Below are positions 3,360-61,926 of a stretch of DNA of 64,000 bases, in pieces. Position numbers and translations under genes: made by a program. The notes beneath the pieces are model-generated. The model ran no database searches, was not told where the DNA came from, and worked only from the letters and a program-made list of their open reading frames with translations. Source of the DNA: a virus. Location: IMG/VR virus record IMGVR_UViG_3300009193_000002; one strand, given 5' to 3'. Position 1 is the first letter of the stretch; each line of letters starts with the position of its first letter.

Positions 3360-3924
3360 ATACTTGCTAGACAAGGAATTCGTCGTTTTTGATACAGAGA
3401 CCACGGGACTTGGCCCAACGGCTGAGATATGTGAAATCTGTATGATGGATGGCCACACTGGAAAGCTACTCTTAAACACACTGGTTAAGCCGGTGAACCC
3501 AATTCAAGAAGGAGCCATGCGTATCCATGGCATCACTGAAGAAATGGTCGAGAATGCTCCGACATGGGACATCATAAGCCAAGCGGTTCGCTATGTTGCT
3601 CAGGGTAAAATAGGCGTTGCCTATAATGCTCAGTTTGATATCAACATGTTGATACAAAGCAGCAATGCTAGAGGTGAGATTGTCGACCCGCTGTTTAACT
3701 TCGATGGTTACTTTTGTGCGATGCAAGAGTATTCAAAGAGAGCTAAGCTCTACGACATCATGCGGAACTCGGCGAAGTGGATAAAGCTTGTGGTAGCTTG
3801 CGAGATGGAGAAAATTGAAGTCCCTTCAAACACACACAGAGCCCATACTGATACCTACTTAACTCGGGAGTTAATTGCAAAAATACTGGAGGAAATAAGA
3901 GATGAAAATCGAAAGTTTGCTTGA
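3316..3924 (+). CDS. DnaQ/epsilon-like DEDDh 3'-5' exonuclease
   Basis: VVFDTETTGL (Exo I), AYNAQFDINML (Exo II), HRAHTDTYL (Exo III, H-x4-D). AGGAA lies 9 nt before the ATG. Confidence 0.85.
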   Translation: MNSVNNVIKIPQPFEYLLDKEFVVFDTETTGLGPTAEICEICMMDGHTGKLLLNTLVKPVNPIQEGAMRIHGITEEMVENAPTWDIISQAVRYVAQGKIGVAYNAQFDINMLIQSSNARGEIVDPLFNFDGYFCAMQEYSKRAKLYDIMRNSAKWIKLVVACEMEKIEVPSNTHRAHTDTYLTRELIAKILEEIRDENRKFA

Positions 3925-4099
3925 GGAATATGCCTTGTATTACGGATTAGCGATCATCGTGCTGGGATTTGTCTCAGCATGGTGGGATATCCGACAGGCA
4001 AGAAAGAAGAACGCTGAGGCTGAGGCTTTACAAGCTCAGCCAAAGAAAAACGATAACGATGTAATTGCCGACAGGCTTAATAACGGGTATCCGCTTTAG
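3902..4099 (+). CDS. small single-pass membrane protein
   Basis: Hydrophobic helix YYGLAIIVLGFVSAWW followed by a charged tail. GGAGGAAA RBS. Confidence 0.5.
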   Translation: MKIESLLEEYALYYGLAIIVLGFVSAWWDIRQARKKNAEAEALQAQPKKNDNDVIADRLNNGYPL

Positions 4100-4127
4100 G
4101 AACTCACAAACAACTAGGAAATTGACG

Positions 4128-4712
4128 ATGTATAAAGTTTTAAATGGTGACAAATTCTCTAAGCTTTGGATGGATATTATTGAGTTTAGAGGAGCCTTTG
4201 GTTTACCTTGCAACCAACCCAACAACGATAACACCGAGCTTCACATTGAATTATTGCGCGAAGAGCTGATAGAAGGATTCTCATCCACCGAGAGAGCTTT
4301 GCAGATAGACGGCATTATTGATAGTGCGTATGTAGTCATGGGGTACTTTGTAGAAAATTCGCTAACTTACGAAACATTAAAAATGCAACACCCTTATCTG
4401 CTGGGGCTTTTAGACACATTCCTCTGTGCTGCCGAGAATTTAAAATTTAACTTTTTCGACGCATGGGGTATTGTACACAGAAGCAATCTTTCAAAAATAT
4501 GTACCCTAGCCAACGTTGGATTAACACTAGACTTCTATCGAGAGCTAGGTATTTCAGCCGCTGCCGACCCTGTTCATTCGGAGCACACCGTGGGTGAAGC
4601 GTTATTTATTGTGAAAGTGAAAGAAACGACTGTGTTGGGTGATAAAACCTTCCCAAGCGGCAAGGTTCTGAAATGTATTGAATACATGGAGGCAGACCTA
4701 AGTCGACTATAA
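4128..4712 (+). CDS. MazG-like all-alpha NTP pyrophosphohydrolase
   Basis: Acidic helices ELLREELIEG and DGIIDSAYV plus VHRSNLSK, as in phage MazG-like pyrophosphatases. The start is the ATG of AGGAAATTGACGATG. Confidence 0.55.
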   Translation: MYKVLNGDKFSKLWMDIIEFRGAFGLPCNQPNNDNTELHIELLREELIEGFSSTERALQIDGIIDSAYVVMGYFVENSLTYETLKMQHPYLLGLLDTFLCAAENLKFNFFDAWGIVHRSNLSKICTLANVGLTLDFYRELGISAAADPVHSEHTVGEALFIVKVKETTVLGDKTFPSGKVLKCIEYMEADLSRL

Positions 4713-4724
4713 GGTAAATGATTA

Positions 4725-4743
4725 GGGGGGAGAGCTCCCCCCC
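4725..4743 (+). terminator. GC stem-loop G6-agagct-C7 between the MazG-like and primase genes
   Basis: Run of 6 G pairing with a run of C. The RBS block follows at 4758-4772. Confidence 0.5.
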
Positions 4744-4769
4744 TTCTCTTAACAATTTGGAAAATGACG

Positions 4770-7700
4770 ATGATTAAAACTAATAATAAGGGTGCCCCGC
4801 TTACCGTATTTAAAACCGGTAGTGGTGTGCTTACAAAGACGCTTACCCGTGTTCACGGCGAGATCAAATCAGAAGCGCCTAAGATGTTCTCCGGCATTGC
4901 CAACACCGTCAATCTATCACTAAAAGAATTACCCAACTTCATCAACGGACTAGAATCAGATGAGTGTTTTTCACTTGGTGTTTTCGAAGGGTATCAAGAC
5001 AAAAAAATTGAAGTGTTGTCTGTAAATGAATTTGAAAACAGGGGCTATCAGTACCCTGTTCACGTTGACGACTCAGGAACCTATGGGACTCGCTCAGGTA
5101 AGTCGATGAAGCAATCGCACCGTGGTTTCATCATGATGGATTACGATGTCGATGAGCAAGAAAAGAACCCAATAAACTGCCCGTTAGAGTTTATTCGTTT
5201 ACTCAACAAAGCAGTGCCTGAATTAGAACTAGCCGACACCTCTTTCGTTAGAACATTCTCGACCTCAGGTGGTTTATATCTGAAGAGTTCAGGGGAATGT
5301 ATTGCCGAGCCTAGAGGCTTCCATATTTATTTCCAAGTAAAAGATGCACGCGATATTAAACGCTTCTCGGATGCGTTAGAAAAGCGTTGCTGGCTTGCAG
5401 GGCTGGGTCATATAAAGTTATCAAGAAACGGAAGCAAGATGCTACGCGTTCCTTTTGATACCTCAGTATTCCAACCGGAAAGATTGTGTTTCGAAGCGGG
5501 GGCATTCATCCCTGAGAACGAGGACTTTTATCAAAAGCGTCCGATGCCTGAGTATTACGGCAAGGCCCACGAAGTTCTGGATACAAAGAAGCTATCAACG
5601 GTTGACGACCAGCGCCTCCGTGAGCTTAAAGAAGTTCAAAACGATGCCAAGACTTGCCCTAAGCTTTTAAACCGCTTAGAGAAGCTGAGAGAGATTAATA
5701 TAAAGCGTATTGTGCATGAGAGGCACTATACCAAAGACAGGATTGATGAAGAGACAGCGCGTAAGATTGTTTTAGGACGTGAGAGCTTCATCCTTCATCC
5801 AAGTGATCACTTAGAGTTTGAAGATGGTAGAGTCGCCACGGTTATGTACGCAGCGTTAAACCCGTTAGAGTTTGACAAAGCGTCTTGTGTAGACCCCTTC
5901 AGACCGGAGAAAGGCGCATCTAAGGCTAAGTTTTATGCCAACTTCGATAAGTGGGGTAACACTAACCCAGTGATTAACTCTTTCGTTGAAGGTGGTCGCC
6001 AATTCGTTTTAAGAAAGTCGATATCACATCATCAAGAAAAACCGCCAGCTGCACCGTCAAGCTTAGGTCACTTGTTTGAAAAGCCGTACATACTTGAACA
6101 GCAATACTTACCAGAGATTACGTTGCGCTCGGGTTACACCTTTGTGAAGTCGAGTAAAGGAACCGGTAAAACTTATTCGTTGGCCAAGCAAATCAAGGCT
6201 ACGGAGGGCAGAGTATTGTCAATCAGCCACCTTATTTCACTGGCTAAGACAACGGCTAAAGTCTTCAATCTTGAGGATTACAATGAGGTTGAAGGTAGAA
6301 ACTTGAGAATGTGCCCTCGCCTTTCAATATGTTTGCCTAGCTTAAGACGAATCGAAGGCACGCAATATAACATCATAATTATTGATGAAGCGTGTCAGTT
6401 ACTTAGAGCGTTAAAGTCGCCGGTTGTTGAGTTCCCAGCGGCGACAGTAAGAACATTGAGAAACCTTTGCCAGATGGCCAACAAAGTTGTTTTGATGGAT
6501 GCAGATTTAAACGAGGAGATGATTGAACTAATGTACAACCCGAAGTTTGGGATCCTCGATAAAGAAAAAGCAATGCACCTTGTAGAGAATAATTTTAAAC
6601 CGGCAAAAGAGAAAGGCAGCGGGATTGAGCTTTACAAGAACAATGATGAAAAAGCAGACGTCAACGCCTTCACGAATAAGCTACTTGAAGTGGTTTACGA
6701 GCAAGGCCAAGGTACCTTCTATGCGAGTAACACGCGTAAGGATGTGCTTAAGAAAGCCAGTTTGTTGATAAAGAAATTTGGGGGTGACCCGATTATTGCT
6801 GAAGAGCATTTCATCACTGAGGTTGCCGGTCGCCGTATCATTACGATAACCAGCCACAATTCTCAGAATGAAGAAGTGCAAACGTTTGTAAAGGCTATCA
6901 ACACTGAGTTGAGACACGATGACATTTTATTAAGTTCACCCTCGATGGGGACAGGCCACTCGATTGATGCTACGGACGGACAAAGTTTCTTTGCTGAAAC
7001 TTTTGGCTACTTCAGCAAACGCTCGGGTAACTTACCCTCGGATTGTGCTCAGCATATGTCCCGAGTAAGAGAATGCACAAAGATTCACTTGTGCATTCAG
7101 GACAACGTTCAGCAATATCCGACAACGCCTATTGAGATTTTAGCTCGGGACATCAACGGTAAAAAGATGACCTTAGATAATCAGATGCATTTCTCGAACG
7201 TGGCGGAATACGACCTTGTAACAAAGTCGATTACTTATAACGACTTTGGTTGGAACAGCTGGTACGTGGCCCTTACGGTTATTGAGAACAATAACAAAAA
7301 TGAATTTGGTGAAAACTTGCTAACGCAGCTTGAGAACGAAGGTTACACGATTAACAAATTGTATGACCTCGACACAGGTACCGGTAGATTTGCCAATAAA
7401 CAAATTCGCCAGTTAGCGGAAGAGCTTACTCGAAAAGAACGTGAGGAGATGGTGGCCACGCCTTTGATTGATGATGAGGAATATCATTTATTGAATATTG
7501 GTGTGAACCTAAGTGCGGATGAGACCAGACGGGTAACTAAGAAGCGTCTTGCCCATACCTTTGGCTTTGAGGAAGACGGTGAAGAGTTTGCCGATTTGTT
7601 ATTGTCCTCGACTCAAAGAATTGCTGCGAGAAGAAAGTCTTTGATCCTAGGAGCAGACATTAATCATCTTAGATTTACCGATGCTTTGAACCGAATAGAT

Positions 7701-8276
7701 GACCTTCGAGCGGACAAGGATAAAACGGCCTATGCCGAACACTACACGATGCTAAAGGACTTCTTAGCTGAGTTAGGGGTTATTATTCTAAACGGCCAGC
7801 TGAGCTATGACGGGCGCGACATCGATGAGAAGGTACAAAAGAACGCGTTTAGGGCGTTAGGCATATGCCAGCGTGAAATGGATTACTTGCACCATATGAA
7901 GGTACCGAGCACACAAGACCCTGAAGAAAAGAAACAATTTATATCTAAGGTCTTGGGCTCGATTGGTCTTAAGTTTGAAAGAAAGCGTAGCAGAGTGAAT
8001 GGTATGAGAGTAACCTCTCATAAATTATGCGAGGTCAGACTTATTGAATTGAATACAGACCTCCGCCGAGCTAGGGCAGCATCGACCTCAGGCATGTATA
8101 ACCAACGGGAAGAAATACCCGTGGCTATTGAGAGCTATTACTATCATCGGTTAGCTGGAAATGCGAAGGCAGCTGCAATGCACGCCTTTGTTGAGAGAAT
8201 GCCTTACGAATATCAACGTGATTTATTTGAGGGCTTAGAGTTAAGACAGCGACTAAGTATGAAAATGAGAGCCTGA
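4770..8276 (+). CDS. AEP primase-polymerase fused to a P-loop helicase/NTPase
   Basis: N-terminal IMMDYDVD (DxD), SGGLY..RGFHIYFQV (sGxGxH) and VPFDTS. C-terminal Walker A SSKGTGKTYS and Walker B IIIIDEACQ. Confidence 0.75.
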   Translation: MIKTNNKGAPLTVFKTGSGVLTKTLTRVHGEIKSEAPKMFSGIANTVNLSLKELPNFINGLESDECFSLGVFEGYQDKKIEVLSVNEFENRGYQYPVHVDDSGTYGTRSGKSMKQSHRGFIMMDYDVDEQEKNPINCPLEFIRLLNKAVPELELADTSFVRTFSTSGGLYLKSSGECIAEPRGFHIYFQVKDARDIKRFSDALEKRCWLAGLGHIKLSRNGSKMLRVPFDTSVFQPERLCFEAGAFIPENEDFYQKRPMPEYYGKAHEVLDTKKLSTVDDQRLRELKEVQNDAKTCPKLLNRLEKLREINIKRIVHERHYTKDRIDEETARKIVLGRESFILHPSDHLEFEDGRVATVMYAALNPLEFDKASCVDPFRPEKGASKAKFYANFDKWGNTNPVINSFVEGGRQFVLRKSISHHQEKPPAAPSSLGHLFEKPYILEQQYLPEITLRSGYTFVKSSKGTGKTYSLAKQIKATEGRVLSISHLISLAKTTAKVFNLEDYNEVEGRNLRMCPRLSICLPSLRRIEGTQYNIIIIDEACQLLRALKSPVVEFPAATVRTLRNLCQMANKVVLMDADLNEEMIELMYNPKFGILDKEKAMHLVENNFKPAKEKGSGIELYKNNDEKADVNAFTNKLLEVVYEQGQGTFYASNTRKDVLKKASLLIKKFGGDPIIAEEHFITEVAGRRIITITSHNSQNEEVQTFVKAINTELRHDDILLSSPSMGTGHSIDATDGQSFFAETFGYFSKRSGNLPSDCAQHMSRVRECTKIHLCIQDNVQQYPTTPIEILARDINGKKMTLDNQMHFSNVAEYDLVTKSITYNDFGWNSWYVALTVIENNNKNEFGENLLTQLENEGYTINKLYDLDTGTGRFANKQIRQLAEELTRKEREEMVATPLIDDEEYHLLNIGVNLSADETRRVTKKRLAHTFGFEEDGEEFADLLLSSTQRIAARRKSLILGADINHLRFTDALNRIDDLRADKDKTAYAEHYTMLKDFLAELGVIILNGQLSYDGRDIDEKVQKNAFRALGICQREMDYLHHMKVPSTQDPEEKKQFISKVLGSIGLKFERKRSRVNGMRVTSHKLCEVRLIELNTDLRRARAASTSGMYNQREEIPVAIESYYYHRLAGNAKAAAMHAFVERMPYEYQRDLFEGLELRQRLSMKMRA

Positions 8277-8337
8277 GGGCTTTCATTCTAAAAATAAATA
8301 ATTATAATAAAAAATAATAAATAATTCGGGAAAAATT

Positions 8338-8826
8338 ATGACGGAAATTGACGAGGATAAGATTTACTTATCGGCGGGGGTTTATCATTACCCTCACAAA
8401 AAGAGACTCCACTTCAAATCAGACCATTACAGATGGATTTGGGTCTCACGCTACTTAAGAGAGAACGAATACAAGTTCAAACGAGACAAACCGTTTGCAA
8501 CAAAGATTTATCTTCAGATAAGAAATGTTATCTCCCCTAAAATAATCAGCTCCAAAGACCTTTATGCTGCCATTGGTTTTTACACGACCTCAATTAACTA
8601 TTTGAAGTCGATTAAGGCTGGGGATAATCGTTGGAACCTATACGGTCGCCCTGACGGTAAAGTTACTGAGAAGGAGGCTGCCTATGCCCGAGACAAGATG
8701 GTTAAAGTGCATTCAGGGTATTTAATGGATCTTAGAAAGTCCCGAAAAAAGAACAACCGAATAGTTGTGAATAATGGGGCTAGAAATCAAATACCAAACA
8801 GGGGTAAACTAGCAGTTAAGAAGTAG
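8338..8826 (+). CDS. ProQ/FinO-domain RNA-binding protein
   Basis: KPFATKIYLQI..SSKDLYAAIGFYTTSINYLKSIKAGDNRWNLYGRPDGKVTEKEAAYARDK aligns by eye with E. coli ProQ [61 protein letters not shown]. Confidence 0.7.
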   Translation: MTEIDEDKIYLSAGVYHYPHKKRLHFKSDHYRWIWVSRYLRENEYKFKRDKPFATKIYLQIRNVISPKIISSKDLYAAIGFYTTSINYLKSIKAGDNRWNLYGRPDGKVTEKEAAYARDKMVKVHSGYLMDLRKSRKKNNRIVVNNGARNQIPNRGKLAVKK

Positions 8827-8849
8827 ACCCCACAATTAGGAAATTGACG

Positions 8850-9290
8850 ATGGCACGACCTGAAAAGACCTTTAACACAGGCAAAGACTCAGAACTCATT
8901 TTTGAAGACCGTATGACTGAACGAAATGCTTTTGTCTATCGATTCGAAGACTACGCCGATATTAATTATAAAGGCGGCAGTAACAGCCCAAACAAAGCGG
9001 TAGATGCTAAGCCTTCAGATTATATTGTGAGTCTTAGTGGTAGCTTATTCTTTGCCGAGGTAAAGAGTGTGGCCACCAAGAGAAGCTTCCCCTTCTCAAG
9101 TATCACCAAAGAACAATGGAGGACAGCATTTAAAGTAGTCCAAACAGGAGGATTATATTTCTTCTTTATTCATTTTAGAGAACTAGACGAATGGTTTATG
9201 GTTCCGGCAAAAGAAATCATTAGGCATGAAAAACGCTCAATGAATCAGCCCGACTTAGTACCCTTCAGAATAAATAACGATTTTACATAA
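8850..9290 (+). CDS. PD-(D/E)xK nuclease, RecU-like Holliday junction resolvase candidate
   Basis: PSDYIVSL...FFAEVKS (D...E-x-K) with a following Q-containing helix and a GG..FF.I strand, the RecU-like order. Motif ATG. Confidence 0.5.
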   Translation: MARPEKTFNTGKDSELIFEDRMTERNAFVYRFEDYADINYKGGSNSPNKAVDAKPSDYIVSLSGSLFFAEVKSVATKRSFPFSSITKEQWRTAFKVVQTGGLYFFFIHFRELDEWFMVPAKEIIRHEKRSMNQPDLVPFRINNDFT

Positions 9291-9311
9291 AAACACCACA
9301 GGAAATTGACG

Positions 9312-10319
9312 ATGAAAATTAAACACTTTGAAACCCCTAAAGGAGTTCAGCTTTTAGGCGACCCCCATTTAGGCAAGAAATTCAATTCACACGTTCCAAG
9401 AGAAAGACTTGGCGAACGCGAGGAGATGGTTCGTAAACAGTTCCTTGAAGAGCTTGAACCTATCGACGACACAATCACTGATCACATTTGCATGGGTGAC
9501 TTATTTGATAAGTTCCGTGTGCCTGAAGAAGTTATTTTGTTTGCTGCCCAAGCATACCGTGATGCCGCCGCGAGAAACCCGAATATTGAGTATTACATCA
9601 TTCGAGGTAACCACGACGCCAGCCGTGATTCATCTTTTAAATCAAGCTTTGACGTTTTTGAAGCGTTGCTTGAAGACGTTGACGGCGTGAATGTCATATC
9701 AGAAGAACCTTTGCATGTGATTTCGCTAGGACAGGAGCACACTCTATACCCTTGGCACCCGTTCATTCATGCCAAAGAAATGGTTGAGCTGCACCCCCCA
9801 ACTAAAGGCGGTTACGTTTATGGCCACTGGGATATTTTAGCCTTTGAAGAAGGCAGCAGCTCTGAAGAAAACTTTGTACCTACCGAGCACTTCAAAGAGT
9901 GTGCTGGAATTTACACAGGGCATTATCATTTACCCAAGGCATTCCCGTTAGACGGTATGACAATTAACATCACCGGTTCAATGCAGCCATACACCCACGC
10001 TGAAGACGAGGTGGGTGAACTTTACCGGACAGAAAGCTTGCCAGAAGTTGTGGCCACGCTGTCAGCCAATCCAGAGCATTACAAGTACGTTAACTTGAGA
10101 GTGCTGCTTGGCCCTGACGAAGTGCCGCTGGCGGACATCGATTGCCTTAGCTATCGAGTAAAGAGAATGCAGAAGGATGAACAGGAAAATATCGACGTCG
10201 ATATCGAGAGCTTCAACCTTGAATCAATATTTAAAAATACAATGAGCGACTTTAAAGTCTCAGACGAAACAACGTCTAAGTTATGGACTCGCTTCTTATC
10301 AGTTAATGAGGCTGAATAA
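9312..10319 (+). CDS. SbcD/Mre11-like metallophosphoesterase nuclease
   Basis: GDPHLG, GDLFD, RGNHD, GHWD and GHYH calcineurin-like motifs. Immediately upstream of the SbcC-like ATPase gene. Confidence 0.85.
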   Translation: MKIKHFETPKGVQLLGDPHLGKKFNSHVPRERLGEREEMVRKQFLEELEPIDDTITDHICMGDLFDKFRVPEEVILFAAQAYRDAAARNPNIEYYIIRGNHDASRDSSFKSSFDVFEALLEDVDGVNVISEEPLHVISLGQEHTLYPWHPFIHAKEMVELHPPTKGGYVYGHWDILAFEEGSSSEENFVPTEHFKECAGIYTGHYHLPKAFPLDGMTINITGSMQPYTHAEDEVGELYRTESLPEVVATLSANPEHYKYVNLRVLLGPDEVPLADIDCLSYRVKRMQKDEQENIDVDIESFNLESIFKNTMSDFKVSDETTSKLWTRFLSVNEAE

Positions 10320-12350
10320 ATGATTTCACTATTAAAATACGACATAGGCTTTTCAAACGGCAAAGGCCTAAGCCAAGAACTGACGCTGGAAAATGGCTCT
10401 ACTTTAATTACCGGTAAAAACGGTAAAGGTAAATCCATGACATTTGAAATGATTGCCTTTGCTTTCTTCGGCGCCAAAGCGTTGCGAGGAGCTGCCGCTG
10501 ACTACAAGAAAATCAGCTGCGATATGACAGTTACGATCAAAGAAGTCACCTACGAAATAAACCGCACCAAATCAAATGCGAAAGTCATCTTGAAAGGTGA
10601 AACGATTGTCAGCGGTAATACGCCGGTTAATCAGTGGGTGACCAGAACACTGGGCCAAGACTACAACGTCTTTAGAATTGCTCACTGGTGTGCCCAAGGC
10701 GATATCCAAGCCCTAGCCAACATGCGTCCGACTGAGCGTAAAGCGATGATTGATTCTGTGGCTGGCCTTACTCAAATGGACGGTCTATCTAAAGAGTTGA
10801 ACAACGAATGGAAGACACTCAGTGCTGAAGTTAATGCCGTAAAGGGCACGTTAGTTCAACCTCAAAAACCCGAGTGTAGCGTCGAGGGTGATGTTACTAA
10901 GTGGGAAAAATCTTTAGCGGGAACAGAAGCGTTATTAACTAAATTTAATGAAGCTCAATCGGTTCAGAAGCCTAGTGAGCCATTCGCCCCGACTGAGCCT
11001 TCAGAGCCTATTTACGCGGATGAGCCTAAGAAGCTGGGCAATCAAAGCGTTAAGAAGCCGGAGCCTTTGGAGATTAAACAAGGGATGCCCTCGACTGTTC
11101 AGCAAGCGATAGCTATTGAGAATCAATTTCTTGATCAGCTGCAGATTTTGGAGCCGATGGAACGCAAACTGTTAGACCTTGAAGCTAAACGCAACCCAGA
11201 CGTGAAGTTCCCAAAAGGGTTTGAGACAGTTGAAAAACTTGAGGCTGCTTGGAACGAATATAATCTACACTTAAAGATTGAAACGTTGAAAGACCAGAGC
11301 GGCGTAGATTGCCCACACTGTAAAGAACATTTCTTTTTAAACACTGAGATTGCTGAGCTAGAAAAAGGTAAGACTAGAAAAACAGAGCCCAGTATTACCC
11401 GTTCAAAGTGGGCTGAACTAAAAACTCAGTTAGAGATTAACGCGGAGCATGACAAAGTTGAAGCTGAGTTCGATGCTGAACGAATGGACAACGTAAGAAC
11501 AGCCTTAAGCCAAATTCGTAAAGCTCGGGCGGACTTAGAATTGTTTGAAGATGAGATGGCCACGTATACCAAGCAAGAGAATTTGCTGTTGTCCCTTCAT
11601 GCTGAACAGTTGGATAGTTGGAAGAAGCAAATTGCCAGCCAGAAAACGAAATACAATGCTCAGTTCTCAGCTTACCAAACTCAGCTGACAAATTATAAAG
11701 CGGCGTTGGTAAAATATGACGAGGGTGTGGCCGCTTACGAGACAGCTCAGAAATATATTTCAGGCTTGTTGGTAACGACCTCGAACTATAAAGAAGAGCT
11801 GGTTTCGTACAAACAAAATTGCCAATCAAATATCGCTGAGTTGAAATTGCACGCTGATAGATGGACGCGCTATGAGAGTGACTTAAAGGAATACAACGCA
11901 CAACTTAGTGGTATTTCAGAAAAGGAAACCGAGTTATCTGAATTAGCCAATGCTCAGGCGGCGTTGAAATCAGTTAAGAGCCAAGTTCAGAACCATTTAA
12001 TTCCGAGCTTGAACGTGGTTGCTTCTAAGTTAATGTTCGACATGACCGGCGGTGAATTCCAAGAAGTGGAGATTGGTCAAGACTTCGAGGTAAACGTCGA
12101 CGGACAGTCTCTAAGGACGTTATCTGGCTCAGGCAAAGACTTAGCCAACTTAACGCTTAGAATTGCACTGGGACGCATTCTGACCCATAAAACCTTACCG
12201 GTTGTTATGCTGGATGAAATCGATTCAGCAATGGATGATACCAGAGCCGGTTATACTTGGGATTGTATCAACCGCATCACGCCACAAATTGGCCAAGTGA
12301 TTCAAGCCAGTCATAAGGAGCTGGACGCGAGTCGCCGTATTGAAGTTTAA
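10320..12350 (+). CDS. SbcC/Rad50-like SMC-type ATPase
   Basis: Walker A GKNGKGKS, long coiled coil with a CPHC hook, signature LSGSGKD, Walker B VVMLDEID. Confidence 0.85.
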   Translation: MISLLKYDIGFSNGKGLSQELTLENGSTLITGKNGKGKSMTFEMIAFAFFGAKALRGAAADYKKISCDMTVTIKEVTYEINRTKSNAKVILKGETIVSGNTPVNQWVTRTLGQDYNVFRIAHWCAQGDIQALANMRPTERKAMIDSVAGLTQMDGLSKELNNEWKTLSAEVNAVKGTLVQPQKPECSVEGDVTKWEKSLAGTEALLTKFNEAQSVQKPSEPFAPTEPSEPIYADEPKKLGNQSVKKPEPLEIKQGMPSTVQQAIAIENQFLDQLQILEPMERKLLDLEAKRNPDVKFPKGFETVEKLEAAWNEYNLHLKIETLKDQSGVDCPHCKEHFFLNTEIAELEKGKTRKTEPSITRSKWAELKTQLEINAEHDKVEAEFDAERMDNVRTALSQIRKARADLELFEDEMATYTKQENLLLSLHAEQLDSWKKQIASQKTKYNAQFSAYQTQLTNYKAALVKYDEGVAAYETAQKYISGLLVTTSNYKEELVSYKQNCQSNIAELKLHADRWTRYESDLKEYNAQLSGISEKETELSELANAQAALKSVKSQVQNHLIPSLNVVASKLMFDMTGGEFQEVEIGQDFEVNVDGQSLRTLSGSGKDLANLTLRIALGRILTHKTLPVVMLDEIDSAMDDTRAGYTWDCINRITPQIGQVIQASHKELDASRRIEV

Positions 12351-12358
12351 CTATTAAA

Positions 12359-12374
12359 GGGGGCATGTGCCCCC
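12359..12374 (+). terminator. hairpin GGGGGCATGTGCCCCC (family copy 1)
   Basis: 6-bp G/C stem with a 4-nt loop, 9 nt after the SbcC-like stop. The RBS block follows. Confidence 0.6.
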
Positions 12375-12394
12375 GCCTACCTTTGGAATTGACG

Positions 12395-12610
12395 ATGATG
12401 AATGTATGTAGCTTTCTAACTGCAGAAGAAATGAAAACTTTAACTGGCGCAACACACCGCGCAAAACAAAAACTGGTTCTGGATAAAAACCGAATCCGTT
12501 ATGTGGAGCAAGAAGACGGTAAATTAAAAGTAGCTTGGGTAAGTTTACTGGGGAACGACCTCCCCACCCAGACTAAACAAAAGGAGCCGGATTTTTCTCA
12601 TTTAACTTAA
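12395..12610 (+). CDS. DUF4224-like small protein (excisionase/recombination directionality candidate)
   Basis: FLTAEEMKTLTGATHRAKQKLVLDKNRIRYVEQEDGKLKV resembles DUF4224 proteins found upstream of phage integrases. Motif ATG. Confidence 0.55.
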   Translation: MMNVCSFLTAEEMKTLTGATHRAKQKLVLDKNRIRYVEQEDGKLKVAWVSLLGNDLPTQTKQKEPDFSHLT

Positions 12611-12633
12611 CTATAGCTACGTGGAAATTAACT

Positions 12634-13689
12634 ATGAAACGACCTGACTGGCTTCCGCCCAAGGTATCCCCAAAAGGGAATTTTTATTATTACAGACCAT
12701 TGAGAAATGGAAAGCGTTACAGATTATGTTCGACCAGTGACTCACGAAGAGACGTGCTGCTAAGTTATGATCGCGTTCTGAGTGAATTAGATGGCGATAC
12801 CAACTTCAAGAAAGTCATTCTTGAATACCTTGATAGCGAGGAGTTCAGTCGCCTCGCTAACAAAACCCAAAAAGATTATATTCTGTATGCCAAAGAAGTC
12901 ACACTGGCCTTTGGCAACATGAATCCTGACAGCATAGAGACGCCACATATTGTTAAGTGGCGTAATCTACTGGCAAAGAAAAGAAGCTCCCCCCTCCAAG
13001 GTAATCGACACGTCTCCTTCATTGGCTCAGTATGCCGCTACGGGAAAGAGAACGGTTACCTCAAGACAAACCCTGCCCTACAGATAAAGAAGCTGCCAGA
13101 GAAGGCGAGAACTCGTTATATCACCCACGAAGAATACTCCATCCTTTATAAGAACGCCGACCCGATATTAAAAGTGGCCATGGAAATTGCGTATGTCTGC
13201 ATGGCCAGAATTAATGATGTAGTTGAATTAAGAAAATCAAACTTGCTTGAAGAAGGTTTATTTATCCAACAGTCAAAAACCGGAGTGGGCCAAATAAAAG
13301 AATGGAATGACCGACTGAGAGATGCAATAAAAAGAGCGCATAAACTCCCATTAGAAAATAATATGCATTCTATTTATCTCATTCATCAAGTGAATGGTAA
13401 GAAAGTGAGTATCCGAATGCTTCAAAAGCGATTTGAGATAGCTCGTTTTAATTCACTGGATGAATGTGGATTCAAAACACCATCAGAAATGAATATACAC
13501 TTCCATGATTTAAAATCGAAGGGTGTTTCTGACATGAAAGGTAGTCTTGAGGATAAAAGATTCGCTGCAGGGCACACCAATCTTAGGCAAACACAGTCAT
13601 ATGATAGGAAATTATCGGTCGTACCGGCTCTCGATGGTGACTTAGCCCCGATAAACCTCTCAGATTTCACACACAGGAGCAATAAATAA
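12634..13689 (+). CDS. int: tyrosine recombinase / phage integrase
   Basis: C-terminal catalytic region ARINDV (R), HFHDLKSKG (H-x-x-K/R-type box), AGHTNLRQTQSYDR (H..R..Y). Adjacent to the tRNA-derived attP. Confidence 0.9.
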   Translation: MKRPDWLPPKVSPKGNFYYYRPLRNGKRYRLCSTSDSRRDVLLSYDRVLSELDGDTNFKKVILEYLDSEEFSRLANKTQKDYILYAKEVTLAFGNMNPDSIETPHIVKWRNLLAKKRSSPLQGNRHVSFIGSVCRYGKENGYLKTNPALQIKKLPEKARTRYITHEEYSILYKNADPILKVAMEIAYVCMARINDVVELRKSNLLEEGLFIQQSKTGVGQIKEWNDRLRDAIKRAHKLPLENNMHSIYLIHQVNGKKVSIRMLQKRFEIARFNSLDECGFKTPSEMNIHFHDLKSKGVSDMKGSLEDKRFAAGHTNLRQTQSYDRKLSVVPALDGDLAPINLSDFTHRSNK

Positions 13690-40366: not shown

Positions 40367-40396
40367 ATAAAAAAGCCTCCCAATTGGGAGGCTTTT
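40367..40396 (-). terminator. intrinsic terminator after the major tail gene (palindromic, possibly bidirectional)
   Basis: AGCCTCCC-aatt-GGGAGGCT with a T run on the minus strand (TTTTTTATTT) and TTTT on the plus strand. Confidence 0.75.
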
Positions 40397-44585: not shown

Positions 44586-44601
44586 GGGGGCAGAAGCCCC
44601 C
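44586..44601 (-). terminator. GC hairpin GGGGGC-ttct-GCCCCC just after the major capsid gene
   Basis: The minus strand reads GGGGGCTTCTGCCCCC followed by TTTAAACTTTGGGAAAAGAAAATG. The layout is the same as at the early-gene junctions. Confidence 0.55.
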
Positions 44602-51326: not shown

Positions 51327-53621
51327 GTGTACTTACATTTAGTCGACATGAGCCCTATTCCGCTGATACCTATTTACAAAACATCACGGTTGCCAGCCAT
51401 CAAAAGAGACAGCTTTTCAAAGGCCCACATGCCATCCGTAATCGAGGTCTGGAAAAACCAGCACGGGGATAAAGACGCGGCAGTGTTGCTAAAACCGCCG
51501 TTGGCCCTGTTAGAGTTCTTATCTCCTCAAACCGTGGAGATACCAAACGCTGTGGCTGTCGACTGGGGTCAAAATCCCCTCCTCTTAGTGAACACAGACC
51601 ATCCGTCAGCGAAATTTAATGATCATGACGTTATCTTGCATACGAATACCTATTTTCCAATCACCTCAGCGTCGTATATCCCAAACCCGCAAGGTATTCT
51701 CCCGACCGACTTAACCGCGTTAGGTCATGCGTCCGAACTGCAGGAAAAAGAAACCTCAAAGGCCATGTTCAGCGCCCAGCTGCAATCATTGACTGTCGAA
51801 TTCGCCCTCGACTTAACCCTAAATCACACTAATCAACCGACATTGCTGCAGGTCATTAACGAATTAGAAGTCATTCTGGAGGAGAAAAACGCCCCATCCT
51901 TGCTGGATTCAACCCTAAGAATGCTCTACCAGACGATTCAGTATTTCTGCGTCAAATACAAGCTGCAGCTACATCCAACCTTCGATAAGGGCATAAACAC
52001 CGGTTTTAGAGATAAATACCATATATCCGTTAATTTCAGCCTAAAACAGCGTAATTACGATGATTTACGAGCGTTTATCTATGAAAAACTATCAGAAGGG
52101 CTAGAAAGTGAAGGTAAAATGGTCGAAAACTGTCAGCTAATAATAGAGCAAATGGCCCTATCTACTGCCATAAACAAGGTCGCATTAGACCAATTAAAGC
52201 GTTTTGTGAGTAAACAGTCAGGCCTGTCCCTGAACATGAGCAAGATGGAAAGCCAGCGACTGCAATTACAGCGCGAAGCCCTCGGCACCGATACCGTGGC
52301 CAACATCAGCACTCGAGCGTTAGAAATTCTGCAGCTGCAGGGAAATTATAAGTTTGATTCAGACCATGCTTACCAACCGGCCCTATATTATTACAACGGC
52401 GTGTGCTGGGAAGTCTTCGCCGACTATAAACTCATCCGACTGCTGCAGTTATACTTCCCGTGCGAGTTCACCCTAAGAAACGCGACGGCGCTGAATACTA
52501 TTATCAGCACCATTAAAGACGCCTTAACCTCGCCAATTAAAATACTCAATCAGAAGGGCATGAACTTCGCCAACGGCATTCTGGATATCAACCAGCAGCT
52601 AAAAGCGCATAACCCCGACTTAGGCATGGACTATTATTTTCCGTTCGAGTACCAAAATTTCCCACCTCCCCCAGAACAATTCCTCGCCTTCCTCAACGAG
52701 TGCTTTGGCCAGCACCCAGAAGAAGAACGCATCGTAATAATCCAAACCCTGAGGCAAGCGTTCGCAGCCACCCTATTCAATCAGGCCCACAACTTACAAC
52801 AGGCCTTCTTGCTTTACGGGAGTTCGAACTCAGGCAAAACCCAGCTACTCAGAATATTGAGTCACCTCATCCCAAAACAAAAGCAAGTCTCCTTGCCCCC
52901 GAACAAGTGGAGTGACACCGACAGCCTGTTCAGTTTGAATTCGGTTTTGCTCAACGTCTGCGGGGAATTGTCAGAAAGCGCCTCAGTCAACTCACAAAGA
53001 TTCAAAGAGATTGTGGATGGTTCCACAATTACGGTGGCCAAGAAAACCACCTCCCGAGATATCAAGCCTCAGTGCGCTCATTGGTTCGCCAGTAACCATC
53101 TCCCGCTTACCAAAGATTTCTCTGAAGGATTTACCCGACGCTGGTTGATTTTCCATTTCAACAACCCGACGACAAAACCCGTGCTCGAGCTAGGCCGAAA
53201 AATTGCCGAGCAAGAGGGAGAAAAAATAATCAACTGGGCGGCGTCGGCTTTGCCAGAGTCTGAATATAAAATCCCGAACTCACATTTAGAGATACAGCGC
53301 GAAATGGCCATGGTGAATAATAACGTGATTTATTACTTTTACCGGTCAGGCGCAGTCACGGTCAACAATCTCAATGCGCTTAAATCATTGCCAAAAGAAG
53401 AGCTGAGCGCGGAGATTAATAAGCTTCGCTGCACCGACAGTTTAAAGCTGTATCAGCATTATGCTTATATTTGCAGTAAACACGGGAAGCGCGAAGTTCC
53501 TGAGGTGGAGTTTCACAAACGCACCCGTGAGCTGGCTTCACAGCTAGGGTTTCTTGTGGTTAGCGGGGCGGATTACAACGGGAACTATCAGCTGCGGTAT
53601 TACGGAATAAAGTGCGGTTAG
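51327..53621 (+). CDS. D5/P4-family SF3 helicase (primase C-terminal-domain type) with unknown ~400-aa N-terminal region
   Basis: QAFLLYGSSNSGKTQLL (Walker A), LLNVCGELSE (Walker B), WFASNHLP (motif C) and FTRRWLIFHF. GTG start with GGAGGG 7 nt upstream. Confidence 0.8.
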   Translation: MYLHLVDMSPIPLIPIYKTSRLPAIKRDSFSKAHMPSVIEVWKNQHGDKDAAVLLKPPLALLEFLSPQTVEIPNAVAVDWGQNPLLLVNTDHPSAKFNDHDVILHTNTYFPITSASYIPNPQGILPTDLTALGHASELQEKETSKAMFSAQLQSLTVEFALDLTLNHTNQPTLLQVINELEVILEEKNAPSLLDSTLRMLYQTIQYFCVKYKLQLHPTFDKGINTGFRDKYHISVNFSLKQRNYDDLRAFIYEKLSEGLESEGKMVENCQLIIEQMALSTAINKVALDQLKRFVSKQSGLSLNMSKMESQRLQLQREALGTDTVANISTRALEILQLQGNYKFDSDHAYQPALYYYNGVCWEVFADYKLIRLLQLYFPCEFTLRNATALNTIISTIKDALTSPIKILNQKGMNFANGILDINQQLKAHNPDLGMDYYFPFEYQNFPPPPEQFLAFLNECFGQHPEEERIVIIQTLRQAFAATLFNQAHNLQQAFLLYGSSNSGKTQLLRILSHLIPKQKQVSLPPNKWSDTDSLFSLNSVLLNVCGELSESASVNSQRFKEIVDGSTITVAKKTTSRDIKPQCAHWFASNHLPLTKDFSEGFTRRWLIFHFNNPTTKPVLELGRKIAEQEGEKIINWAASALPESEYKIPNSHLEIQREMAMVNNNVIYYFYRSGAVTVNNLNALKSLPKEELSAEINKLRCTDSLKLYQHYAYICSKHGKREVPEVEFHKRTRELASQLGFLVVSGADYNGNYQLRYYGIKCG

Positions 53622-53634
53622 TCGTGAGCAGATA

Positions 53635-53664
53635 CAAAAAAACCACCCTAAGGTGGTTTTTTTT
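53635..53664 (+). terminator. strong intrinsic terminator (A-tract, ACCACC-ctaa-GGTGGT, T8), potentially bidirectional
   Basis: Read directly: AAAAAAACCACCCTAAGGTGGTTTTTTTT. Confidence 0.85.
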
Positions 53665-53759
53665 AGCCTACTAAAACTCTAGGGAATTCTAGGGGCTAAG
53701 CGAGACAGCTTCGGGAATAAAGTTAAAGCCTACCGCGCATACTGCTTTGGTAAAATTTA

Positions 53760-53785
53760 CTATCTCAATATCATCGTCATTTTCC
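53760..53785 (-). promoter_or_regulatory. orphan GGAAAATGACGATG block on the minus strand followed by only a 4-codon ORF
   Basis: The minus strand reads GGAAAATGACGATG ATA TTG AGA TAG. No gene lies downstream before the convergent terminator. Confidence 0.55.
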
Positions 53786-54233
53786 AGCGTCATACCGTTT
53801 ACTAAAATCATACTGCGATTCCTTGTGCGGTACTACATTTAGCTGAGCAGATTAAGGCTCACTAAACGAACTTGCGATTTGCAAGAGGCTGGATATTACA
53901 TAATTATGACAAAAAATTAAATATAAAAATCGTTTAAGTTGTGTTTTACCTTCAATCTGGTCACGTAAATGTTTCTAAATATTTCTGTTGTTTATTTAAT
54001 CATCTAATCGTAAGAATAACGTTTAACTTTTTTCTGGCGGGGGTTTCTAGTCTGTTCTTTGAAGGTAGTGGATGTAGCCTATCGCCGAAATCTCAAAAAT
54101 TTTTCAGGGAGAGTGAGGTGGCCCCCCTCTCATATCACTAAAATACTAGACAGAAAAACTACCCCCCCTTTATAGTAGTTTCACGTTGCAACCCAGCAAC
54201 GCCGCAAACAGCGGACAACTTAAACCAAACAAG

Positions 54234-54247
54234 GGGGCATATGCCCC
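54234..54247 (+). terminator. hairpin GGGGCATATGCCCC (family variant)
   Basis: Palindrome directly upstream of the AAGGAATTGACGAAATG start block. Confidence 0.5.
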
Positions 54248-54264
54248 TACAAGGAATTGACGAA

Positions 54265-55104: not shown

Positions 55105-55113
55105 GCCATAAAC

Positions 55114-55129
55114 GGGGGCACGTGCCCCC
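55114..55129 (+). terminator. hairpin GGGGGCACGTGCCCCC (perfect palindrome)
   Basis: 10 nt after the stop at 55104. No RBS block follows. Confidence 0.55.
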
Positions 55130-55734
55130 ATTATCCAACGAAAAACACCTGTTTTTGGTATGTATTCAGATACGTATCAAAAACGTGTTTTTTTCGCGCA
55201 AGCGAATAACAAAAAACTTCTACAGCCCACAGCCCACGCCGTACGCCGTTATATGTAGGTAGTGATAATTGACCGCGAGCTTCATAAATCGGGGTGTGTA
55301 CGATTGAAAATAATCGCCACGTTTTTGCAGGTGGTTTTTAGGGGTTATTTCACTGTGTTTATAGCCAGTAGTTTGTCCCACTAAGAATACAAGTTAGGTC
55401 AGCCGTGGGCTGTAGACGTGTTTTTGTTTTTAGGCGGGGTTTTTAGGCGTTGGTTTTAGGTTTTTTAGCATTCTAGGCATTTATTTTTGCTTATTTTGAG
55501 GTTTTTTCGCTAAGTGGTTGACGTAAAAGAAAAAATTGCAGGCCGTTTTTTGCCCTACGCCTTCAGCCGAAGTCGCCGCCGATAGCCTAAATTAATCGTT
55601 TTACCCTAAAAAATATACAAACTAAAAACACTATTTTAGTTTCTTAATTAATAAAACCGATTTTATTCGGCCTTATTCATTAATAAATTAGATTGGATTT
55701 CGCAAATCACTTGCGATTAAACTAGCCTCAAGTT
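55130..55734. promoter_or_regulatory. non-coding repeat-rich region: iteron-like T-tract/AGG array, inverted repeats, AT-rich tract (ori/cos/regulatory candidate)
   Basis: No credible ORF. (G)GTTTTTAGG(CG) units at 55333 and 55426-55478. ACGTGTTTTT at 55183 and 55416. TCTACAGCCCAC inverted at 55218 and 55405. AT-rich stretch at 55600-55700. Confidence 0.6.
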
Positions 55735-55750
55735 GGGGGCACATGCCCCC
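55735..55750 (+). terminator. hairpin GGGGGCACATGCCCCC (loop flipped relative to most copies)
   Basis: Upstream of the GGAAATTGACGATG block of gene 55773. Confidence 0.5.
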
Positions 55751-55772
55751 TACTACATACTGGAAATTGACG

Positions 55773-56497: not shown

Positions 56498-56580
56498 AGA
56501 CGTAACACCTCAATGCCGTTCTGTCCGGCAGCAAATGACAGAAATTTAGTGTAACTATATGATTTACAAGGAAATTGACG

Positions 56581-56742
56581 ATGAAAAATTACGTAAATGT
56601 GCTCGATATTCAGTTCAAAAATATGTTCGGGGAAGACCTTTTTCCTGAAGATTTGGAACTTGAGTGCGTTCTAACCGACCTGAGAGACGATTTAAGCGGA
56701 TATAATTCTGACGAGGTAGCTCAGGATGGAATTCTAATTTGA
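56581..56742 (+). CDS. small highly acidic protein (53 aa), absent from the ORF track
   Basis: Perfect AAGGAAATTGACGATG block. Translation MKNYVNVLDIQFKNMFGEDLFPEDLELECVLTDLRDDLSGYNSDEVAQDGILI has 13 D/E against 3 K/R. Confidence 0.55.
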   Translation: MKNYVNVLDIQFKNMFGEDLFPEDLELECVLTDLRDDLSGYNSDEVAQDGILI

Positions 56743-56825
56743 TGCGCTTACCGTTCGATATGAAACCCTAATTCGCGCTATAAAATGCTCACTTCAACTA
56801 TTCAAATACACTTTTAGGAAAAACA

Positions 56826-57041
56826 ATGAAAAATATAGACGTTGAAATATTACGTAAAGACCACGGCCAAAAATTCAATTCTTTGATGGATAGAGACGAC
56901 TGTTATCGGCTATTGATTGACCAAACTTTGGACGGTGCTCAGTGTCAACAATTAGACACGGCGATTCGAGTTGGTTCGAAATATACGTATGAAAACCGAT
57001 TTGTGCGTTTCACTTTTAACCCTACTCCAGAATTACACTAG
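56826..57041 (+). CDS. hypothetical small protein
   Basis: AGGAAAAACA then ATG. The stop TAG merges into hairpin 57041-57055. Confidence 0.5.
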   Translation: MKNIDVEILRKDHGQKFNSLMDRDDCYRLLIDQTLDGAQCQQLDTAIRVGSKYTYENRFVRFTFNPTPELH

Positions 57042-57075
57042 GGGCATGTGCCCCCTTTAAGGAAATTGACGATGA
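57039..57075 (+). repeat. 37-nt junction unit copy 1: TAG-GGGCATGTGCCCCC-TTTAAGGAAATTGACG-ATGA
   Basis: Identical 37-mer at 57039, 57513 and 57978. Confidence 0.9.
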
Positions 57076-57515
57076 ACAAAAAAGAAGAATTACAAAATAA
57101 CCGTGCGAAGTGGCTTGCTGCTTTGCGTTCGGGTGACTATTCACAGGATACTGGCCAGCTGCAAGGGGGTGATGGTTTTTGCTGTTTAGGTGTGGCTTGT
57201 GATGTCTTTCAAAAAGAGACAGGTTTGAAATTACCCGTAAACCAGTTGGGTTATATCGCGGGAGGGTCTTTATTTTCGTATGAAGATGAAGACCTTGGCG
57301 CAGATTTTGTTTCTCCTAGTGAAGTTCAGGAGTGGTTGGGTTTACGCCATCGAGCGGGTGAATTTGAACAGAAAGTGTTAGATGGTTTAGGCCTAATCCC
57401 TGAGTTACACAAGCATGTTCATTCACTGGTTAGTTTAAATGACACGGCTCTAATGACCTTTGAGCAGATTGCTGATGTTATTGAAGCCAACCCTGCTGGG
57501 TTATTTGAAGAATAG
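57072..57515 (+). CDS. conserved-Cys phage protein, paralogue A (ALRSG-Y-Q...CCLGV family)
   Basis: NRAKWLAALRSGDYSQ..GFCCLGVACDV...SLVSLNDTALMTFEQIADVIEANPAGLFEE. Paralogous to the next gene. Confidence 0.65.
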   Translation: MNKKEELQNNRAKWLAALRSGDYSQDTGQLQGGDGFCCLGVACDVFQKETGLKLPVNQLGYIAGGSLFSYEDEDLGADFVSPSEVQEWLGLRHRAGEFEQKVLDGLGLIPELHKHVHSLVSLNDTALMTFEQIADVIEANPAGLFEE

Positions 57516-57549
57516 GGGCATGTGCCCCCTTTAAGGAAATTGACGATGA
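57513..57549 (+). repeat. 37-nt junction unit copy 2
   Basis: Identical to 57039-57075. Confidence 0.9.
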
Positions 57550-57980: not shown

Positions 57981-58014
57981 GGGCATGTGCCCCCTTTAAG
58001 GAAATTGACGATGA
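57978..58014 (+). repeat. 37-nt junction unit copy 3
   Basis: Identical to 57039-57075. Confidence 0.9.
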
Positions 58015-58539: not shown

Positions 58540-58556
58540 GGGGGCATGTGCCCTCC
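58540..58556 (+). terminator. hairpin GGGGGCATGTGCCCTCC (imperfect family copy)
   Basis: After the stop at 58506. The next start block lies 60 nt downstream. Confidence 0.5.
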
Positions 58557-59656: not shown

Positions 59657-59672
59657 GGGGGCATGTGCCCCC
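59657..59672 (+). terminator. hairpin GGGGGCATGTGCCCCC
   Basis: Followed by GTAAGGAAAATTGACGATG. Confidence 0.6.
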
Positions 59673-61392: not shown

Positions 61393-61408
61393 GGGGGCAT
61401 GTGCCCCC
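61393..61408 (+). terminator. hairpin GGGGGCATGTGCCCCC
   Basis: Followed by CGTAAGGAAATTGATGATG. Confidence 0.6.
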
Positions 61409-61923: not shown

Positions 61924-61926
61924 CGA

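Follow-up and report, generated by a model that had tools for sequence, protein, structure and literature searches.

Among bacterial RNA chaperones, the FinO-domain proteins rank as the third major class, with characterised members encoded both by chromosomes and by plasmids. The present analysis concerns a member of this superfamily that is encoded by a phage, on a 64,000-nucleotide stretch of viral DNA (IMG/VR record IMGVR_UViG_3300009193_000002; hereafter, the window is the whole of this stretch). The open reading frame (ORF) in question occupies positions 8338..8826 on the + strand, stop codon included, and encodes a protein of 162 residues (19.2 kDa, isoelectric point 10.1) that probably binds RNA in a role linked to the replication/recombination module of the phage. 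The interval to which the original prediction had drawn attention, 8277-8826, consists of this ORF and a 61-nt intergenic spacer (8277-8337), as position 8277 directly follows the stop codon of the upstream gene.

The template for ligand recognition is the FinO domain of Legionella RocC in complex with the RocR terminator (7RGU), in which the base of the hairpin is held at the N-cap helix and the 3′-OH nucleotide is placed in a pocket (PMC9674577). The RocR terminator carries a pyrimidine tail after its GC hairpin (PMC9674577). The floor of the 3′-nucleotide pocket is built by RocC Y87 and R97 and by the corresponding ProQ Y70 and R80, which are required for RNA binding (PMC9674577, PMC10578477). 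A beta-turn bearing ProQ G37 or RocC G52 touches the terminal ribose; RocC G52 is “nearly completely conserved” and the ProQ G37A substitution is deleterious (PMC9674577, PMC10578477). ProQ R58 and RocC R75, located in the N-cap helix and conserved at ~80%, contact the hairpin backbone, and ProQ R58A loses binding of 7/7 RNAs tested (PMC9674577, PMC10578477).

Plasmid FopA (pCol1B9), PcnR (IncI2) and FinO (F-like) are encoded by mobile elements and act on the replication or transfer genes of those elements via antisense RNA (PMC9977716, PMC8053102), and a review names DNA metabolism and the control of mobile-element replication as the functions with which the family is most widely associated (PMC9977716). 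These systems offer a functional analogy for a FinO gene that adjoins a replication initiator-type gene, the element here being a phage. FinO-like proteins are stated in the paper on Shewanella phage KASIA to occur “rarely in phage genomes” (PMC8541194).

The results of profile searches bear out the suggestion, made at first from the letters alone, that ORF 8338-8826 encodes a FinO domain. The Pfam ProQ/FinO hidden Markov model PF04352, whose gathering cutoff is 27 bits, matches the protein at 48.1 bits (E 1.3e-12), over residues 50-124 (8485-8709) and profile positions 25-99 of 109. A phmmer comparison of the ORF with PDB sequences detects the N-terminal domain of ProQ and RocC at E values of ~3-6e-4, and an eight-member subfamily profile detects ProQ (8e-9, E. 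coli/Salmonella, FinO domain aligned at profile residues 43-121), Lpp1663 (1e-7), RocC (1e-6), NMB1681 (1e-5) and FinO (5e-4). All close homologues have a precomputed PF04352 match, and a six-frame profile search of the window finds no second FinO ORF, ORF 8338-8826 being the sole match. An N-terminus of the form M-T-(D/E)...D-K is common to this ORF and a 50%-identical homologue, supporting ATG 8338 as the start. Between the window and its closest relative, contig L018 (88% amino acid identity in the FinO-domain protein), the ratio of nonsynonymous to synonymous substitution rates (dN/dS) of the FinO gene is 0.065, and the flanking primase-helicase, RecU, SbcD and SbcC genes show dN/dS of 0.03-0.07 at dS of ~0.5-1.2. 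Overall, ORF 8338-8826 encodes a genuine FinO-domain superfamily protein under purifying selection.

The pattern shared with ProQ that had been noticed by eye is reproduced residue for residue in HMMER alignments: K51P52 corresponds to ProQ R32P33, I57Y58 to I38F39, L75 to L57, Y82TTS to Y64TSS, Y88L89 to Y70L71, G95 to G77, R98 to R80 and A117R118 to A99R100, and L101, G103, P105 and G107 likewise fit. The ProQ numbering used here agrees with the fragments printed by HMMER and with the residue names in PMC10578477. The NCBIfam ProQ equivalog model NF003434 gives 30.1 bits against a cutoff of 127, and the FinO model NF010317 gives 26.6 bits against a cutoff of 136, so that the protein is neither ProQ nor FinO proper. 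A tblastn search of the PLSDB plasmids returns only weak Sodalis matches. Recent capture from a host ProQ or a plasmid FinO was rejected in view of the NCBIfam scores far below cutoff and the weakness of the plasmid matches.

The fold agrees with the family assignment. An AlphaFold2 model has a mean predicted local distance difference test (pLDDT) score of 72.6, with 80-90 across residues 21-125, and its secondary structure (helices 29-42, 57-64, 72-83, 86-91 and 111-139; strands 97-99 and 105-108) follows the FinO topology of a helical bundle with a beta-hairpin ahead of a long C-terminal helix. The top 27 matches of a Foldseek search of PDB with this model are all FinO-domain structures (RocC, Lpp1663, NMB1681, FinO and ProQ); the first 26 have probability 1.00, and the next matches are noise at E>3. 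The suggestion thus survives both of the computational findings that could have refuted it, a missing profile match and a missing structural match. Template-modelling (TM) scores normalised to the target are 0.57-0.72, except for ProQ 5nb9 (0.43), and the best structural match is RocC 7RGU (E 2e-5). The FinO domain proper is preceded by an N-terminal extension of ~28 residues and followed by a basic extension (Table 1), in which the last helix continues to ~139 before a disordered K/R-rich tail. This C-terminal extension has 11 K/R and 1 D/E (isoelectric point 11.9), residues 141-162 have pLDDT below 50, and a basic patch LRK(S/A)R / RRKR is kept across the phage FinO subfamily. As the protein has only 162 residues and ends in a disordered tail, a second (Tudor-like) domain is absent. 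Unlike ProQ, it thus has neither a linker nor a Tudor-like C-terminal domain. RocC also differs, having a long C-terminal region and a single small RNA (sRNA) partner, and repressing competence. Nearer in layout are Neisseria meningitidis NMB1681 (3MW6) and Legionella Lpp1663 (6S10), which are likewise stand-alone FinO domains with short basic extensions and similar length, match with TM scores of 0.60-0.72 normalised to the target and have the same Tyr/Arg pocket core, but these are chromosomal global RNA binders with a sequence identity of just 21-25%.

In an exhaustive search of 1.84 billion cluster representatives with HMMER, 166 relatives are found at E<=1e-3 and only 24 at E<=1e-10, and the latter form a small subfamily of proteins with 127-170 residues. 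Residues at the RNA-contact positions were tabulated for 59 relatives. Y88, equivalent to ProQ Y70 and RocC Y87, is invariant (59/59), and position 98, equivalent to ProQ R80 and RocC R97, is Arg in all but one, the exception being Lys. The position of ProQ G37 and RocC G52 is occupied by Lys56; most subfamily members (E<1e-9) have K/N/T/Q/S/E/M/V there, Gly returning in P0022, P0028, P0029 and P0031. The surrounding turn reads PLK(I/V)G in more distant matches versus P(L/F/M)(S/A)xx in the phage subfamily; Lpp1663 carries the canonical PLK(I/V)G turn by alignment, and NMB1681 does so by inference. The turn glycine is highly conserved, yet it lies outside the definition of the family. The position of ProQ R58 and RocC R75 is occupied by Tyr76, and in the subfamily by mostly Y/F, some N, H or T, and never R. 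ProQ K35 is also not conserved. Position 73 of the subfamily is a near-invariant K/R, which might compensate for the missing R58 equivalent, and His125 is subfamily-specific and invariant.

The FinO domain of the window protein therefore holds both the pocket residues Y88 and R98 and the divergent K56 and Y76; its core pocket is kept and its peripheral RNA-contact residues are remodelled. Replacement of the turn Gly and the helix Arg implies that the details of recognition differ from those of ProQ and RocC. We define a phage replication-module FinO subfamily by a signature, P-(L/F/M)-(S/A)-x-x-(I/M)-Y ... SS(K/R)xL(Y/F) ... (H/Y)xxSxxYL followed by R(W/F/Y)(N/D)(L/I/V)xG ... and the invariant His125, together with a location between a Herpes_ori_bp-type primase-helicase and RecU. 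The window protein has both the signature and the location. A broader subfamily alignment (A4) was set aside as too diverse.

The second element of this definition, location, is conserved to a high degree. In all related contigs that were examined, the FinO gene comes straight after the primase-helicase gene, and the order primase-helicase, FinO, RecU, SbcD and SbcC is constant in ~11 distinct phage lineages according to tblastn and gene calls (Table 1). This order, which holds in all related contigs of sufficient length, was read in the window, L002/L003, L018, KB12-38 (L001), L004-L010 (IMG/VR), L012, L021/L022 (metagenomic) and L025; the short contigs L019 and L023, in which the FinO-RecU part alone is captured, agree with it. 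The identity of the FinO-domain proteins to the query over these syntenic loci ranges from ~90% down to ~30%. The fuller order upstream is PolA ... RNase T-like exonuclease ... an ORF of ~200 residues, then the primase-helicase; the ~200-residue ORF is MazG-like, PRA-PH, in L012 and weakly so in L025. An integrase gene often follows SbcC in related loci. In L021 and L023, the FinO ORF runs into both neighbours, overlapping the helicase stop by 11 nt and also the start of RecU, and the helicase-FinO gap is 13 nt in L012 and 27 nt in KB12-38. The constant gene order and the overlaps indicate that the FinO gene is an integral cistron of a replication/recombination operon. It is neither a separately placed regulator nor a moron.

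Table 1. Coordinates of features in and around the FinO-domain gene of the window
Feature	Position	Strand	Basis or remark
GC hairpin GGGGGGAGAGCTCCCCCC with pyrimidine tail CTTCTCTT	4725..4742	+	just before the primase-helicase ribosome-binding site
Primase-helicase / origin-binding-type protein, 1170 residues	4764..8276	+	Pfam Herpes_ori_bp; PHROG replication, DNA primase families
10-bp hairpin AATGAGAGCC-TGAG-GGCTTTCATT	8264..8287	+	minimum free energy fold; helicase stop 8274-8276 in loop; no U-run after
AT-rich intergenic tract	8281..8337		6 G/C of 57
Displaced start block GAAATTGACG	8344..8353	+	codons 3-6, six bases past the ATG, then AGG, not ATG
FinO domain proper, residues 29-125	8422..8712	+	AlphaFold2, Foldseek, HMMER residue mapping
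Basic C-terminal extension, residues 126-162	8713..8823	+	composition, pLDDT
RecU-type Holliday-junction resolvase	8850..9290	+	Pfam RecU, PHROG 843
SbcD-like nuclease	9312-10319	+	Pfam Metallophos; PHROG 100 SbcD-like
SbcC-like nuclease	10320-12350	+	AAA_23/SMC_N in identical contig L002
Stereotyped hairpin GGGGGCATGTGCCCCC	12359..12374	+	module end, after SbcC; candidate 3′-end element/ligand

The carrier of this operon is, as had been supposed, a phage: a 1985-residue tape measure, a 2865-residue J-like tail protein, a large terminase, a portal and an integrase are recognised by PHROG, characteristic of a temperate siphovirus-type phage. The clade comprises temperate siphovirus-type marine phages of ~65-90 kb, and its nearest cultured relative is Pseudoalteromonas phage KB12-38. 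The KB12-38 orthologue, ASV44004 (GenBank MF098558; “hypothetical protein” with the note “PFAM-ProQ”), belongs to the same subfamily (159 residues, 33% identity), and its gene is similarly situated between a Herpes_ori_bp-type primase-helicase and a Holliday-junction resolvase/SbcCD in a temperate genome of ~78 kb. Unlike the window protein, it has a basic N-terminal extension and Asn at the Y76 position, and its gene has no AT-rich spacer; it provides a precedent in annotation only, not in function. The window matches part of a metagenomic contig of ~83 kb, ENA ERZ807151 NODE_119, in which the protein and its neighbours are identical. Among 50,697 deposited phage genomes (INPHARED), megablast of positions 7000-11000 finds no match and tblastn finds KB12-38 alone. 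Scans of GTDB representative genomes with the FinO profile and with the primase-helicase profile give zero matches, as does a comparison of the KB12-38-like group (A6) with IMG/VR, and PADLOC finds no defence match for the FinO gene or its neighbours. Two further observations concern genes: in L025, an HNH endonuclease gene (PF13392; 9044-9598) is inserted between SbcD and SbcC of the otherwise invariant module, and the window contains a second primase-type gene (51327-53621, + strand, 764 residues; PHROG DNA primase families, E 4e-31).

The original prediction also held that the gene follows an almost pure A/T tract containing TATAAT and might be separately regulated. The tract is real: with 6/57 G/C it is the lowest-GC 57-mer in the window (the runner-up has 9 G/C), and it contains TATAAT at 8303-8308 and a direct repeat ATAAATAATT at 8294-8303 and 8317-8326. 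When the spacer is compared with that of L018, 53/62 positions are identical (85%) versus 510/871 (59%) at the four-fold degenerate sites of five surrounding genes (binomial p 4.5e-6), with no change at all in a 23-nt core TAAAAATAAATAATTATAATAAA, indicating that something in the spacer is constrained in this lineage. Separate regulation is no more than a possibility: a sigma-70 consensus scan of 8277-8337 gives no promoter match, as the best -35 is CTTTCA (3/6), the AT spacer is lineage-specific, not being conserved in L012, KB12-38 (L001), L021 and L023, and the reasoning from the TTGACG block, considered below, is wrong. The spacer could be read as a promoter that has a -10 element alone or depends on an activator, as an AU-rich leader for translation or RNase site, or as a DNA unwinding element beside the origin-binding-type helicase gene. 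No iterons or other origin features are found at 7900-8900, the repeat search giving trivial short repeats.

In L005-L008 and L010 (~5925-5973), the helicase stop is followed by an AT-rich stretch with TATAAT, a hairpin, a variant start block and the ATG. The hairpin ahead of the FinO gene in these contigs, GGCTCC-N4-GGAGCC plus T4-5, is terminator-like. As an attenuator-like layout is thereby placed before the gene of a predicted terminator binder, autoregulation is conceivable.

The start block itself (the TTGACG block) is a stereotyped context for translation initiation and consists of (A/T)GGAAATTGACG followed at once by ATG; 33 matches with <=1 mismatch are found in the window versus 5.9 expected, and nearly all abut a start codon. 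Examples are located at 4118-4127, 8840-8849, 9302-9311, 55763-55772, 57062-57071, 57536-57545, 58001-58010 and 61946-61955. At the RecU and SbcD starts, the window and L018 have 100% identity in the block, the RecU start context being the canonical AGGAAATTGACG-ATG, and it is seen across the clade (L004-L010, L018). The block precedes ~22-27 genes; its length, with a fixed AAATTGACG spacer, is far beyond the need of a Shine-Dalgarno sequence. The FinO gene had been thought to lack the block and to be one of few genes that do so, but an exact copy lies inside the ORF (Table 1), and the block (<=1 mismatch) stands directly before the start in only ~22 of ~69 greedily called ORFs. The FinO start itself reads GGGA-N6-ATG, with a Shine-Dalgarno-like GGGA at 8328-8331, which is weaker than the canonical block. 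A variant ATTGACGAG is present in the FinO start region of L005-L008, L010 and L019, 7-9 nt ahead of the ATG, and the corresponding region of L018 contains ATTGACGATG, whose ATG is out of frame. Given these non-canonical starts in several lineages, translation of the FinO cistron could be set differently from that of its neighbours.

In L018 (6001-6024, corresponding to 8338-8361 of the window), the FinO ORF opens with ATGACTGACATTGACGATGAT, so that a canonical block and an intact ATG in the +2 frame occur 16 nt into the ORF, where the window has AGG. A strong start of this kind, out of frame and within a gene, would be unusual. An overlapping out-of-frame ORF starting there (L018 ...TTGACGATG, +2 frame) was considered and rejected, because the window has AGG in place of its ATG and other lineages lack it.

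Stereotyped GC hairpins, whose abundance had also been foreseen, are indeed numerous. The family GGGG(G)CATGTGCCCC(C), of the GGGGGCATGTGCCCCC type, has 12 sites in the window versus 0.17 expected, mostly at gene junctions: 12359-12374, 44586-44601, 54233-54248, 55114-55129, 55735-55750, 57040-57055, 57514-57529, 57979-57994, 58540-58555, 59657-59672, 61393-61408 and 61926-61941 (the 57040-type is GGGGCAUGUGCCCC). Most sit at 54-62 kb among small + strand genes, typically 3-10 nt before the ribosome-binding block. The asymmetric loop is CATGTG, not its complement, an orientation bias suggesting that the role is exerted at the RNA level or is specific to one strand. Most copies run into CTTTAAGG or a similar sequence, which provides ~3 U only, and so differ from classical terminators with a U-tract.

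No stereotyped GC hairpin flanks the FinO gene, where just the weaker 10-bp hairpin spanning the helicase stop is found (Table 1); this hairpin is kept in L018 via G:U wobble changes, and the helicase-FinO junction of L019 has an unrelated hairpin, CCCGAT-N6-ATCGGG. Upstream, the hairpin preceding the primase-helicase has a pyrimidine tail, also given as CUUCUCUU, and the same junction in L005, L006, L009, L001 and L021 carries hairpins of unrelated sequence. GC hairpins at cistron junctions are a clade-wide trait. By analogy with known ligands of the family, the hairpins before the primase-helicase and after SbcC are plausible candidate ligands of the FinO-domain protein. The region 3900-13000 shows no enrichment of terminator-like sites relative to shuffled sequence (13 vs 9.1), and ARAGORN finds no tRNAs in the window.

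Outside the replication module, a 16-pair AT-rich hairpin, TGTTTTTGGTATGTAT-TCAG-ATACGTATCAAAAACG followed by TGTTTTTTTC, occurs at 55150-55185 (+ strand) and is intrinsic-terminator-like. It sits in a non-coding gap (55105-55742, ~640 nt without a long ORF), and could end a non-coding RNA, a natural candidate for a FinO-type ligand. Gaps without an ORF of at least 100 residues are 53622-54240, 55105-55742 and 56498-57047; each includes segments that rank among the most AT-rich in the window (53892, 53976, 55599, 56295), and the gaps probably represent an early or regulatory region where promoters or small RNAs are located. Two classical bidirectional intrinsic terminators are seen in GCCTCCCAATTGGGAGGC (40375-40392, flanked by a T-run on either side) and CCACCCTAAGGTGG followed by T8 (53643-53656), in contrast to the U-poor stereotyped hairpins.

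Taken together, we favour the view that the FinO-domain protein binds RNA in a replication-module-linked role, to which we assign a probability of roughly 0.65; confidence in any specific RNA target is much lower. As in all characterised FinO domains, structured RNA would be bound, the base of a stem-loop being gripped while the single-stranded 3′-OH tail docks in the Tyr88/Arg98 pocket, and the basic tail would add affinity. Phage RNAs might thereby be stabilised, masked or matched up. Candidate clients would be transcripts of the replication operon, at 3′ ends that carry a hairpin or at hairpins between cistrons, or else an antisense RNA or leader with a regulatory function. Clients are most likely phage RNAs tied to the module, because the gene is co-expressed with replication genes and apparently translationally coupled in some lineages. 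Such a role would be analogous to the antisense control exerted by plasmid FopA-Inc-repZ, PcnR and FinO-FinP-traJ (PMC9977716, PMC8053102). The constant replication/recombination neighbourhood and the two substituted contact residues suggest a role more specific than that of a global chaperone. Several points weigh against this assignment: the residues in place of the ribose-touching Gly (Lys56) and the backbone-contacting Arg (Tyr76) are not those of canonical members, the AlphaFold2 model was built on a 7-sequence alignment, the ~3 U that follow the stereotyped hairpins may not yield the 3′-OH ends that FinO domains need, and Rfam at gathering thresholds gives 0 matches in the window.

An action beyond the module, as a global or host-directed riboregulator that binds the phage-wide GGGGCATGTGCCCC junction hairpins or competes with host ProQ for sRNAs and mRNA 3′ ends of the host, and in this way reprograms expression across the genome, is an unlikely alternative in our judgement. 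In its favour are the FinO fold with its pocket core, the global binding known of ProQ and NMB1681 (PMC9674577), and the excess of stereotyped hairpins, mostly at junctions and just ahead of ribosome-binding blocks. These hairpins, however, cluster away from the FinO gene, and being without U-tracts they provide only putative 3′ ends. The invariant linkage is to replication/recombination genes, not to regulatory genes; the substituted R58 and G37 equivalents argue against simple mimicry of host ProQ, and both GTDB host scans are empty. The same linkage could instead be taken to mean that an exapted 3′-end binder acts directly in replication/recombination, its remodelled pocket recognising primer 3′ ends, RNA-DNA hybrids/R-loops or DNA hairpins/junctions, and that it has the primase-helicase, RecU and SbcCD as physical partners instead of acting post-transcriptionally. 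The absolutely conserved slot between primase-helicase and RecU, the overlapping ORFs in some lineages, and the adjoining tract, which in this lineage is the most AT-rich in the window and might serve as an unwinding element, are in line with this idea, as are the invariant subfamily-specific His125 and the fact that the substitutions hit the turn that reads the 2′/3′-OH of the terminal ribose and the duplex-contacting Arg. We nevertheless consider it quite improbable. The Y/R pocket core is unchanged, synteny alone is no proof of physical cooperation, and the region 7900-8900 lacks iterons and origin features; no FinO-domain protein is known to have a DNA substrate or a direct role in replication.

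The atypical start context, with its displaced block and weak GGGA, could also be expected of a functionless passenger or a mis-called ORF. This explanation is contradicted by the conservation data, and has a negligible likelihood: the gene evolves at a dN/dS of 0.065 and is retained at one locus down to 33%-identical lineages, the Pfam score is above threshold, and the model is confidently folded.

Homologues of the window protein have already been labelled ProQ-like in GenBank, JGI and UniProt, several JGI homologues being named “sRNA-binding protein”, and ~10 viral cluster representatives in BFVD have a FinO fold (those named ProQ/FinO being phiM9, RHph_N34, Aeromonas 4_4572, Salmonella 7-11 and SU7). 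The finding is therefore no surprise in kind, yet it provides a reasonable experimental target. In the literature searched, no functional study of any phage-encoded FinO-domain protein was found, and neither the fixed place in a replication/recombination operon nor the combination of G37/R58-equivalent substitutions with a private His125 has been described.

The subfamily constitutes a compact test case, with proteins of 130-170 residues in a fixed context that differ naturally from ProQ and RocC at two positions critical to the latter. If the protein were to act directly in replication or recombination, it would be the first FinO-domain protein acting outside post-transcriptional regulation, and the constrained AT tract might be the unwinding element of an origin in this lineage. 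More generally, study of this subfamily could reveal how far RNA recognition by FinO domains can drift, and could show whether phages use the FinO fold for control of their own replication/recombination operon, in a plasmid-like manner, or for tampering with host riboregulation.

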